Assembly: GCF_053078305.1 (NCBI RefSeq)
Contig: NZ_CP166879.1
DNA: 64,000 nucleotides
Strand: one strand, 5' to 3'
The notes under the pieces were generated by a model that saw only the letters and a program-made list of their open reading frames with translations, was not told the DNA's origin and ran no database searches. Below, one piece after another: positions 49,866 to 53,972 of the stretch. The position numbers were made by a program, and so were the translations under genes. Every line of letters begins with the position of its first letter. Position 1 is the stretch's first letter.

Positions 49866-52800
49866 TTAGTCAAACGGCGGTGGGGCCAGCACTTCACGAT
49901 TACCGTTGTGCCCCTGTTCGCTGACAATCCCCTGCGCTTCCATCTGTTCGATAATACGCGCTGCACGGTTATAACCAATGCGGAACTGACGCTGTACGCC
50001 TGAAATTGACGCTTTGCGTTTTTCAGTGACAAACTGCACCGCCTGATCGAACAACGGATCCAGTTCTTCAGCGCCATCGAAACCACCCGCACCACCTTCG
50101 CTTTCGCTGTCGGAGGTGATGCCATCAACATACTGTGGGCGACCACGCGCTTTCCAGTCCTGCACCACGGCATGAACTTCCTGATCGCGAACAAAAGCAC
50201 CATGGACACGTACCGGCAACGTGGAGTTCGGCCCAGAGTAGAGCATATCCCCCATACCCAGCAGTGATTCCGCGCCAGCCTGATCAAGAATGGTACGTGA
50301 GTCAATCTTACTGGATACGGTAAAGGCGATACGGGTCGGAATATTCGCTTTAATCAGACCAGTAATAACATCAACCGATGGACGCTGAGTTGCCAGTACG
50401 AGGTGGATACCCGCGGCACGGGCTTTTTGCGCCAGACGTGCTATCAGCTCTTCCACTTTTTTACCTACCGTCATCATCAGGTCGGCAAATTCGTCAACCA
50501 ACACCACAATGTATGGCTCTTTTTTCAGCACCGGATGCTGGGCATCCATACTGTCACCCGGCTTCCAGTACGGGTCTGGAATCGGACGCATCATGCGATC
50601 GGCTTCAGCAATTTTTTCGTTATAACCCGCCAGATTACGCACACCCAGCGCAGACATCAGTTTATACCGACGCTCCATCTCGTTAACACACCAGCGCAGC
50701 GCGTTGGCGGCATCTTTCATATCAGTAACGACTTCCGTTAACAGATGCGGAATGCCTTCATAAACCGAAAGCTCCAGCATTTTCGGGTCGATCATGATGA
50801 AACGCACATCTTCTGGCTGCGCTTTATAAAGCATGCTCAGGATCATCGCGTTCACACCGACAGACTTACCGGAACCGGTAGTCCCCGCAACCAACAAGTG
50901 CGGCATTTTCGCCAGATCGGCAACCACCGGCTCACCGGCGATATCTTTACCCAGCACCACGGTTAATGGCGACGGATTATCGCGGAATTTGGCGTTATCC
51001 AATACTTCGCGCAGATAAACGGTTTGTCGTTTTTTATTCGGTAACTCCAGACCTACATAGGGTTTGCCAGGAATAACTTCAACGACACGCACCGCCACCG
51101 TCGAAAGTGAACGGGCAAGGTCCCGTGACAAGTTAGAAATGCGCGCCGCTTTTACGCCCGGTGCCAGGTTAAGTTCAAAGCGAGTGATAACCGGCCCCGG
51201 AGAGTAATTGACGACATCGGCTTTAATACGGAAATCAGCCAGACGTGCTTCCACCAGACGCGCCATTTGTTCAAGCGCAAAGGTATCTACCGGCTCCACT
51301 TCGCTCGGCGGCGGTGTCAGCAAATCCAGAGAAGGCAGCGGCGTCGTCGGTTTATGCAACGGACGGCTGTCGCCATTACGCATCAACAGCGGATGAAGCA
51401 GAGTATCCTGCGGCTGTGGCGCAACTGGCTGTTGCGGCTGCTGATATTGCTGCTGTGGTGCAGCCGATTGTTGTGGCTGCTGATACTGCGGCTGCGGCGC
51501 AACTGGCTGTTGCGGCCGCTGATATTGCGGCTGCGGTGCAACCGGTTGTTGCGGCTGCTGATATTGCTGCTGCGGTGCAACCGGTTGTTGCGGCTGCTGA
51601 TATTGCTGCTGTGGCGCAACCGGCTGTTGTGGCTGCTGATACTGCTGCTGCGGTGCAACCGGTTGTTGCGGCTGCTGTACAGGTTCAACAATTGGCGTAA
51701 ACAACGGTTCGTGTGGACCATCATCCAGCAACGCTTTCATTGGCGAAAATTCAAAATCATCCAGCGAGAACGGATTCGCCCCAGCCGGTTGTTCGCCGGA
51801 ATAACGTTGTTGTTGAGTTTGCGCAAACTGACGAGCCAGTTCAGCCTCTGCCGCAGCATCTGCATCTTCTGCGTTTACGGGCACATCATGTTGATACTGT
51901 TCGCCATAGCGTTGCTGCTGTGTCTGGGCGAACTGACGTGCCAGTTCATCCTGCTGCATCGCATCGATTTCATCATCATTATACTGATCGCCAGAATCAT
52001 ACTGATTGCGCTGGGCTTCACGGGCTTTTTCTTCCGCCGCACGCTGTGAGGGCAGTTTAATACCGTAAGACGCCAGTTCACGACGAGTTGGCACGCGGAT
52101 ACGTTTCGGTCGTGGCAACTGCGGGCCAATCCCCTCTTTGACCTGCGGACGCGGTCCACCGCTATTTGCCAGACTGAAGACTGGCGCAGCAACGGTTGCG
52201 GCAGCCCCCGTCGCCAGTGTCGCTTTTTTCACGCCAGATGCCAGCGGAGAAACAGCGGCAGCGGCTTCTACTGGAGGTATTGCTGCAACAGAAGGTGCTT
52301 TCAGCGAAGATTTGATCGGTTCTGGTTCTTTAACCGGTTCTGGAATCGGTTGATACCAGGCCGCAAGTTGTTCACGTTCACGGGCTCGCTTCTCTTCCAC
52401 TTCTTCAAAGTAGTAAAGCGGCGGACGCGCGGGTTTTGTCTCTTCTACAACGGGTTCAGGCTCCACAACAGGCTGCTGTTCAACAGGTTGCGGCTGTTGG
52501 TACAACGGCTCCTGAGCGGCTGGCTGCTGATAAGTTTGCTCAGTCTGGTATGTAGACTGTGGAGCAAAAGTGGATTGCTGCTCTTCGGCTTGCCAGGCGT
52601 TACCTGCCACCGGTTGTTCTGGCGCAGGGGCATAATACGGCTGTTGCGCAGGCTGTTCCGGCGCAGTTGCGTAATACGGTTGCTGAACAGGTTGTTCCGC
52701 CGCAGGAGCGTAGTAAGGTTGTTGCGCAGGTTGTTCAGCTGCAGGTGCATAATACGGCTGCTGCGGCTGTACTGGTTGTTGCAGCGGCTCATTATATTGC

Positions 52801-53972
52801 ACTGCAGGCTGCGCATATTGTGACTGCTGTGGGTAACCTTCCGGTGCAGGAGCAATAACCGGCTCTCCCGTTTGTGGACCCGGTACAGGCTGCCAGGCTA
52901 CTGTAGGTTGCGCAGGTGGAACATCAACAGAGGCAACAGGTGGCGTCTGAGTCACAGGTTCAACCGGTGCAGCCCAGCTTTGCGTCGCCGTGGTAGCAGC
53001 AGCTGCTACAGCGACAGGTTCGGTAATTGGCGCACCGTTTAATAATGGATCGTATTCGTCATATTCTGGCTGCGTTGCACGATTGCCCGAAAATAGGACG
53101 TCGTCCGGGTCGGCAGCCACACCGCGTGCAGTGTAGGTAATCTCTTCGTCATCATCCATCCGCTTACCGGAGAACAACGCAGCGTCTGTTTGCCGCCCCA
53201 TCGGATTAATGAATTTTTCCGCCAACCGTTTACGACGCGCTAGCGCGCCGCGAAGAATACGGGCACGGCGTGATTCATGCTGTTTGCCGTGATTTTCATC
53301 TTCATACTCTTCGTCGTCTTCATACTCATCTTCATCGACCCAGGTATCATCGCGACGGGTACGATTACTGGCGAAGGTGAGAATGTTTAAAATCCAGCCG
53401 CCGAGTTTTTCAGCAATGGTCACCCATGACCAACCGGTGAACAACGTCAGGCCCGCTGCCCAAACGCAGAGCAGCGCAATAGTTCCCCCGCTACTGTGTA
53501 GCAGTGGTTGTAGCGTAGTGCTTAGTAAGCTGCCAATGACGCCACCGGAGGCAAAATACCAGATATCGTCAGCGTTGATTGCCGCCAGACCACAGGAGGT
53601 AAGGATGAGCGCCAAAACGCCAATGATGCGTAGCGAAACGGCAAAATAATCAATGTATTCGTCGCTGGACTGATGACGCCAGGCAAACCAACAACCGCCG
53701 ACAATAATGACGGGAATGGTGTAAGCCATCACGCCAAAAATAAAGAACAGCGTATCTGCCAACCACGCACCGGGCATCCCACCTAAATTATGGATAGGTT
53801 CATGCCAGGCCGTTTGCGACCAGCTGGGGTCCGAAGGGTTAAAGCTTAGTAAGGCAGCCATCAACCAGACGGCAAACAGGACAATAAGGATCAGCAACGC
53901 CTCCAGAAGGCGGCGACCGCTACTTAACTTTGTCAATGTGACTTCTTTGTCTTCAGTGTATTCCTGGCTCAA
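49866..53972 (-). CDS. ftsK: DNA translocase FtsK
   Basis: 1368 aa; N-terminal TM domain, long Pro/Gln-rich linker, C-terminal motor with Walker A GTTGSGKS. Confidence 0.95.
51405..51685. repeat. In-frame 39-bp tandem repeats within ftsK linker (encode PQQPVAPQ(Q/P)QYQQ units)
   Basis: About 7-8 consecutive near-identical 39-nt units visible in sequence. Confidence 0.8.

Follow-up and report, generated by a model that had tools for sequence, protein, structure and literature searches.

The ftsK gene and its domain-free linker

The window analyzed here, a 64,000-nucleotide stretch of contig NZ_CP166879.1 (RefSeq assembly GCF_053078305.1), carries a complete ftsK on the reverse strand, with lrp upstream and lolA and rarA downstream, the same order as in the K-12 and JJ1887 annotations. 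The features of the gene are as follows.

49866-53972, minus strand: ftsK coding sequence, 1368 aa, TTG start (open reading frame list, K-12 comparison, Pfam)
53400-53915, minus strand: FtsK_4TM membrane domain, aa 20-191 (Pfam, E 5e-42)
51339-53399, minus strand: linker, aa 192-878, without a Pfam domain (Pfam and composition)
52608-52763, minus strand: array A, VNTR ms06, four units of 39 bp, aa 404-455, QQPYYAPA type (Tandem Repeats Finder [TRF], K-12 alignment, in silico PCR)
51405-51677, minus strand: array B, VNTR ms07/CVN001, seven units of 39 bp, aa 766-856 (TRF, K-12 alignment, in silico PCR)
50373-51338, minus strand: FtsK alpha domain (aa 879-979) and FtsK/SpoIIIE ATPase domain (aa 987-1200) (Pfam; FtsK_SpoIIIE, E 9e-88)
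49884-50066, minus strand: FtsK gamma domain, aa 1303-1363 (Pfam)

All four FtsK Pfam domains are present (FtsK_4TM, FtsK_alpha, FtsK_SpoIIIE, and FtsK_gamma), giving the protein the full architecture of the FtsK/SpoIIIE family: an N-terminal four-transmembrane segment, an alpha plus beta (P-loop ATPase) motor, and a gamma domain that interacts with KOPS and XerD. This is a normal, intact ftsK allele. Between membrane domain and motor, the linker is dominated by a few residues (P 17%, Q 20%, A 14%, and E 8% over aa 330-860); FtsK linkers are described as unstructured, with length and composition that differ between species (PMC5357621, PMC3870252), and their function is treated further in PMC2800217. 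An acidic tract lies right behind the membrane domain (53295-53336, minus strand, aa 213-226), which TRF detects as a repeat of period 6; K-12 has the identical tract.

The initial annotation described in-frame 39-bp tandem repeats in a Pro/Gln-rich linker, together with a further run of QQPYYAPA-type units. TRF recovers both inside positions 51380-52800, within the domain-free linker, and the QQPYYAPA block also has a 39-bp unit. Array B is reported as period 39 with 6.9 copies (51409-51677, score 391) and array A as period 39 with 3.9 copies (score 175) or period 78 with 1.9 copies (score 206) at 52612-52765; across 200 codon shuffles of the linker, the TRF score reached at most 79 (mean, 12). 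In both arrays the unit is 13 codons, encoding 13 aa. Pairwise identity between units is 29 to 32 of 39 nt in array A and 29 to 38 of 39 nt in array B (74 to 97%, i.e., 1 to 10 mismatches per 39 nt), and the differences are overwhelmingly synonymous (array A, pS = 0.74, pN = 0.06; array B, pS = 0.40, pN = 0.055; pN/pS for the module peptides, 0.08 to 0.14). This pattern of divergence among units indicates strong purifying selection on the module peptides, and the modules are probably no free-drifting spacer.

Two further features of this part of the linker were recorded. An identical 14-aa peptide is encoded twice between arrays A and B (51906-51947 and 51801-51842, minus strand; aa 676-689 and 711-724), as a dispersed direct repeat whose copies lie 35 aa apart and whose DNA differs at 10 of 42 positions, all synonymous; K-12 has this repeat as well, and Salmonella, Citrobacter, and Klebsiella retain one copy or more. 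Open reading frames in other frames run over the arrays on both strands (51245-52060 and 52350-52855), encoding 100 to 260 aa with runs of A/V/Q or R/L/N/S. As candidate genes, those at 51245-51700 (plus), 51267-52049 (plus), 51383-51724 (minus), 52350-52823 (plus), and 52445-52855 (minus) were rejected as by-products of the repeats, being low-complexity translations inside a well-supported gene.

Copy number in K-12, in E. coli, and in related genera

K-12 MG1655 ftsK (b0890) also starts with TTG and is 3,990 nt long, encoding 1329 aa, in agreement with the K-12 length given in the initial annotation (about 1329 aa, versus 1368 aa here). A global alignment of the two proteins contains seven substitutions and exactly 39 gap columns, 26 in the QQPYYAPA array (array A) and 13 in array B. 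The 39-aa excess is thus a difference in copy number, as had been proposed, since every alignment gap falls inside one of the two 39-bp arrays: the window has four units against two in array A (+2) and seven against six in array B (+1). Equal length and repeat count in K-12, the observation named beforehand as speaking against that proposal, is not what we found (1329 aa and 2 + 6 units). The C-terminal 512 aa are identical in the two proteins. Overall, the changes are in register, keep the frame, and are confined to the low-complexity linker, leaving the motor domain unaffected.

The initial annotation called this difference an expansion, which holds for the window relative to K-12 but not as the direction of change in array A. 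The K-12 array consists of window units 1 and 4 only (K-12 unit 1 matches window unit 1, and K-12 unit 2 matches window unit 4, each at 39/39 nt). Because window units 2 and 3 are only 29/39 to 32/39 identical to the units that flank them, with a pS of 0.74, a recent origin by duplication of units 1 and 4 is excluded for them. We infer with good support that the K-12 array A allele is a contraction in which units 2 and 3 (78 bp) were deleted, and that the window keeps the older four-unit state; the deletion junctions share the 11-nt string CCTGCGCAACA. Alternatively, a diverged array may have been imported by recombination.

To count units in outgroups, we scanned genome contigs with degenerate patterns, using one genome per species. 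Array A has four units in E. albertii, five in E. whittamii, four in a divergent lineage named E. coli, and two in Escherichia sp. E1V33; it was not found in Salmonella (one genome per species examined). No positional orthology is visible between the array A units of the window and those of E. albertii, E. whittamii, or other Escherichia, with 26 to 34 of 39 nt identical in all combinations. What indicates the direction of change in array A is therefore how far units 2 and 3 have diverged from units 1 and 4, together with the copy numbers of the outgroups. Array B is common to Escherichia, Salmonella, and Citrobacter, at two to nine units. In E. albertii NBRC 107761 (L004, 4208-4240), an 11-residue polyalanine run replaces array B units, leaving about two that are recognizable.

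Other Enterobacteriaceae carry unrelated in-frame arrays at the same two linker positions: 39 bp in 10 to 13.6 copies in Kluyvera and a relative (L044, L107), 72 bp in six to seven copies in Klebsiella (L040, L075, L112), 42 bp in 7.5 copies in Shimwellia (L027), and arrays of 39, 42, and 45 bp in Superficieibacter. Those of Kluyvera, Klebsiella, and Shimwellia at the array A position are much longer, unrelated, and in frame. No array was detected at these linker positions in most Enterobacter, Buttiauxella, and Cedecea. Arrays that are unrelated or absent across genera fit the published picture of a variable, unstructured linker (PMC5357621, PMC3870252).

Within E. coli, a whole-gene megablast search over 5,426 complete genomes was abandoned for allele counts, as the arrays broke up the matches in about 43% of genomes; for that reason we queried with 400 nt of array flank only and obtained array length by subtracting the matched flank length from the record span. 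For each array, 60 records were drawn, evenly spaced down the ranking of the 5,426 genomes, with the following result.

Array A (ms06): one unit in 1 genome, two in 19, three in 21, four in 18; one irregular length of 60 nt
Array B (ms07/CVN001): two units in 1 genome, three in 1, four in 1, six in 20, seven in 28, eight in 4, nine in 2; irregular lengths of 225, 249, and 270 nt

Copy number thus varies widely across the multiple E. coli genomes that the initial annotation had proposed comparing, and 116 of the 120 sampled array lengths are multiples of 39. The window alleles are among the commonest in E. coli (A = 4 in 30% and B = 7 in 47%), these frequencies being those of 60-genome samples spread over a biased RefSeq collection of complete genomes rather than of a full census. 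The sampled ranges (A, 1 to 4; B, 2 to 9) agree with published allele ranges: ms06 alleles 2, 3, and 4 and ms07 alleles 1 to 12 were reported in 80 wastewater isolates (PMC8215070), and CVN001 alleles 4, 5, 6, 7, and 8 at 1, 40, 40, 13, and 5%, respectively, in Swedish ESBL producers (PMC5217547). Records labelled plasmids account for eight of the matches to the linker flanks of ftsK, and 1 of the 5,426 genomes has no ftsK match.

Whole-gene matches in complete E. coli genomes give ftsK lengths of 3,990, 4,005, 4,029, 4,044, 4,068, 4,074, 4,095, 4,107, and 4,224 nt, and fetched annotated coding sequences add 3,912, 3,951, 4,011, 4,083, and 4,146 nt. The window's length, 4,107 nt, is the most frequent (15 of 34 fully covered matches). 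Unusual alleles fetched for inspection include A = 1 in strain I3, A = 3 in 1919D3, B = 2 in MS1657, and B = 9 in OkiPb01677; the ftsK genes carrying such alleles are intact coding sequences of 3,912 to 4,146 nt that differ by gain or loss of whole modules. Irregular changes were also seen, as an in-frame 18-nt deletion (QPVQPQ) adjoining array A in H22 and an in-frame 24-nt deletion within an array B unit in B25FEP, and gene lengths of 4,005, 4,044, 4,074, and 4,095 nt elsewhere suggest more linker indels that are not whole units.

In lineages sampled more than once, members share one allele, and alleles differ between lineages. All sampled O157:H7 genomes have A = 2 with B = 7, and the sampled K-12 derivatives have A = 2 with B = 6. 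In the ST131 strain JJ1887, ftsK is 4,107 nt long (1368 aa) and CVN001 = 6, which fits the published ST131 MLVA profile (PMC3877011, PMC5217547). This uniformity within sampled lineages and difference between them is why the arrays serve as MLVA typing loci. The 1329 aa of K-12 lie in the lower part of the observed E. coli FtsK range (1303 to at least 1407 aa), residue numbering past aa 416 shifts between strains, and a difference in FtsK length from K-12 should not count as a mutation.

Probable module gain and loss in a tether that may tolerate it

We consider it highly probable (roughly 0.9) that the window carries a common E. coli ftsK allele with two in-frame linker minisatellites whose copy number changes by slippage or recombination in a tolerated tether, the K-12 form of array A being a deletion. 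Judging from the allele structures, whole units would be lost or gained in register by replication slippage or unequal recombination between direct repeats. With a unit of 13 codons, such a change leaves the reading frame of the DNA-translocase domain downstream intact, and each step would add or remove 13 aa in a disordered Pro/Gln-rich tether of roughly 650 aa that runs from the membrane domain to the motor. Such changes in tether length are probably tolerated.

A review reports contacts of parts of the linker with FtsQ, FtsL, FtsI, and FtsZ and increased filamentation in linker mutants (PMC5357621), so copy number could have a functional effect. On an adaptive reading, which we consider unlikely, the 13-aa modules would be sequence-specific functional units, either divisome docking motifs or elements of tether reach, and selection would hold their number at lineage-specific optima by tuning reach or the binding of divisome partners. 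The one hint of functional modules is the conservation of their peptides (pN/pS, 0.08 to 0.14) while synonymous sites are near saturation. That the sampled O157:H7, ST131, and K-12 members each have one allele is compatible with such optima, but a low mutation rate predicts within-lineage uniformity equally well. Moreover, healthy isolates from all sources carry one to four array A units and two to nine array B units, at these linker positions related genera carry either unrelated arrays or none, and when a 28-aa linker-repeat indel was swapped between two Salmonella Enteritidis strains, survival in egg white, the single phenotype assayed, was unchanged (PMC6137255).

A recent, strain-specific slippage expansion from a K-12-like allele is less probable still. 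The excess over K-12 does consist of exact unit multiples, as such an expansion would produce, but recent duplicates would be near-identical, which is contradicted for array A by the divergence of its extra units from their neighbors. The four-unit and seven-unit alleles are moreover each found in a third to half of the sampled genomes, in unrelated lineages, and E. albertii and E. whittamii have four to five array A units. Least credible is a repeat mis-expanded in a short-read assembly: array B, at 273 bp with units as similar as they are, is of a size where short-read assemblers can miscount, but the exact 4,107-nt gene was found by whole-gene search at 100% identity in three independent complete E. 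coli genomes, which makes an artifact unlikely, its length is both the most frequent one and the annotated one in JJ1887, and the mismatches between units are enough to anchor reads. We retain whole-unit gain and loss in a tolerated linker as the most probable explanation; its significance beyond bookkeeping is small.

Correspondence with published typing loci

Both arrays are published VNTR typing loci, ordinary in-frame VNTRs that were already known. The suggestion that the repeats could be used as strain markers is therefore sound and already in practice, as the two loci are typed as ms06 and ms07/CVN001 (PMC4644529, PMC8215070, PMC5217547, PMC11773471); MLVA schemes have routinely targeted the ftsK linker polymorphism since 2007-2008, and it is hence no new locus. 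Each combines a 39-bp tandem array, published flanking primers, and copy-number polymorphism in E. coli, and exact matches to the published primers lie at the following sites in the window.

52854-52873, minus strand: ms06 forward primer (PMC4644529, PMC8215070)
52495-52514, plus strand: ms06 reverse primer
51918-51937, minus strand: ms07 forward primer
51312-51331, plus strand: ms07 reverse primer, overlapping the CVN001 reverse primers (51307-51326 and 51316-51337)
51772-51792, minus strand: CVN001 forward primer (PMC11773471, PMC8143711)

In silico PCR on the window yields 379 bp for ms06 (allele 4), 626 bp for ms07 (allele 7), and 484 bp for CVN001 (allele 6); the corresponding products from K-12 MG1655 are 301 bp (allele 2), 587 bp (allele 6), and 445 bp (allele 5). 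The window can thus be typed directly from its sequence for in silico MLVA (ms06 = 4, ms07 = 7, CVN001 = 6).

Array A is ms06 of Gorge et al.: it has the same 39-bp unit and exact primer matches, and for E. coli alleles 2, 3, and 4 have been published, corresponding to amplicons of 301 to 379 bp (PMC8215070). We show here that ms06 maps to the QQPYYAPA array of the FtsK linker; the cited MLVA literature does not state its location in ftsK. Array B is at once CVN001 of the Lindstedt generic E. coli MLVA (GECM-7/10) and ms07 of Gorge et al., with locus, unit, gene, and primers all the same. A Shigella MLVA paper that uses the Gorge et al. primers lists ms06 with a 39-bp unit and an offset of 223 and "ms07 (CVN001)" with a 39-bp unit and an offset of 353 (PMC4644529), and a paper on avian E. 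coli names the locus "CNV001 (ftsK)" and lists primers with exact matches at 51772-51792 and 51316-51337 of the window (PMC11773471). For the original Lindstedt CVN001 primers, the allele is given by (product - 250)/39 (PMC8143711), and it is because of this offset that the CVN001 allele is one below the array B unit count. CVN001 = 6, as in the window, is one of the two commonest alleles (alleles 5 and 6, 40% each; PMC5217547, Table 3).

A phase-variable contingency locus was considered and rejected. Such loci act through a frame shift or a promoter change; here the unit holds 13 whole codons (39 bp), each of the 120 sampled array lengths is divisible by 3, and every fetched ftsK is an intact coding sequence.

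The counterpart of array B in Salmonella enterica is STTR7, also called SENTR2, a 39-bp repeat in ftsK with similar modules directly upstream of the same conserved 11-aa segment (PMC2430564). Its copy number differs (9.3 in S. Enteritidis, about 4.5 in S. arizonae), and Salmonella has this array without array A. A looser parallel is CVN004/SENTR1 in tolA, one example of the in-frame minisatellites known from disordered or extended segments of envelope proteins, which, like the ftsK arrays, has an in-frame unit in a flexible region of a protein that is essential or at least important, is length polymorphic without loss of function, and is used in MLVA (PMC11773471, PMC2430564); it differs from them in its gene, its repeat sequence, and its unit of 15 or 45 bp.
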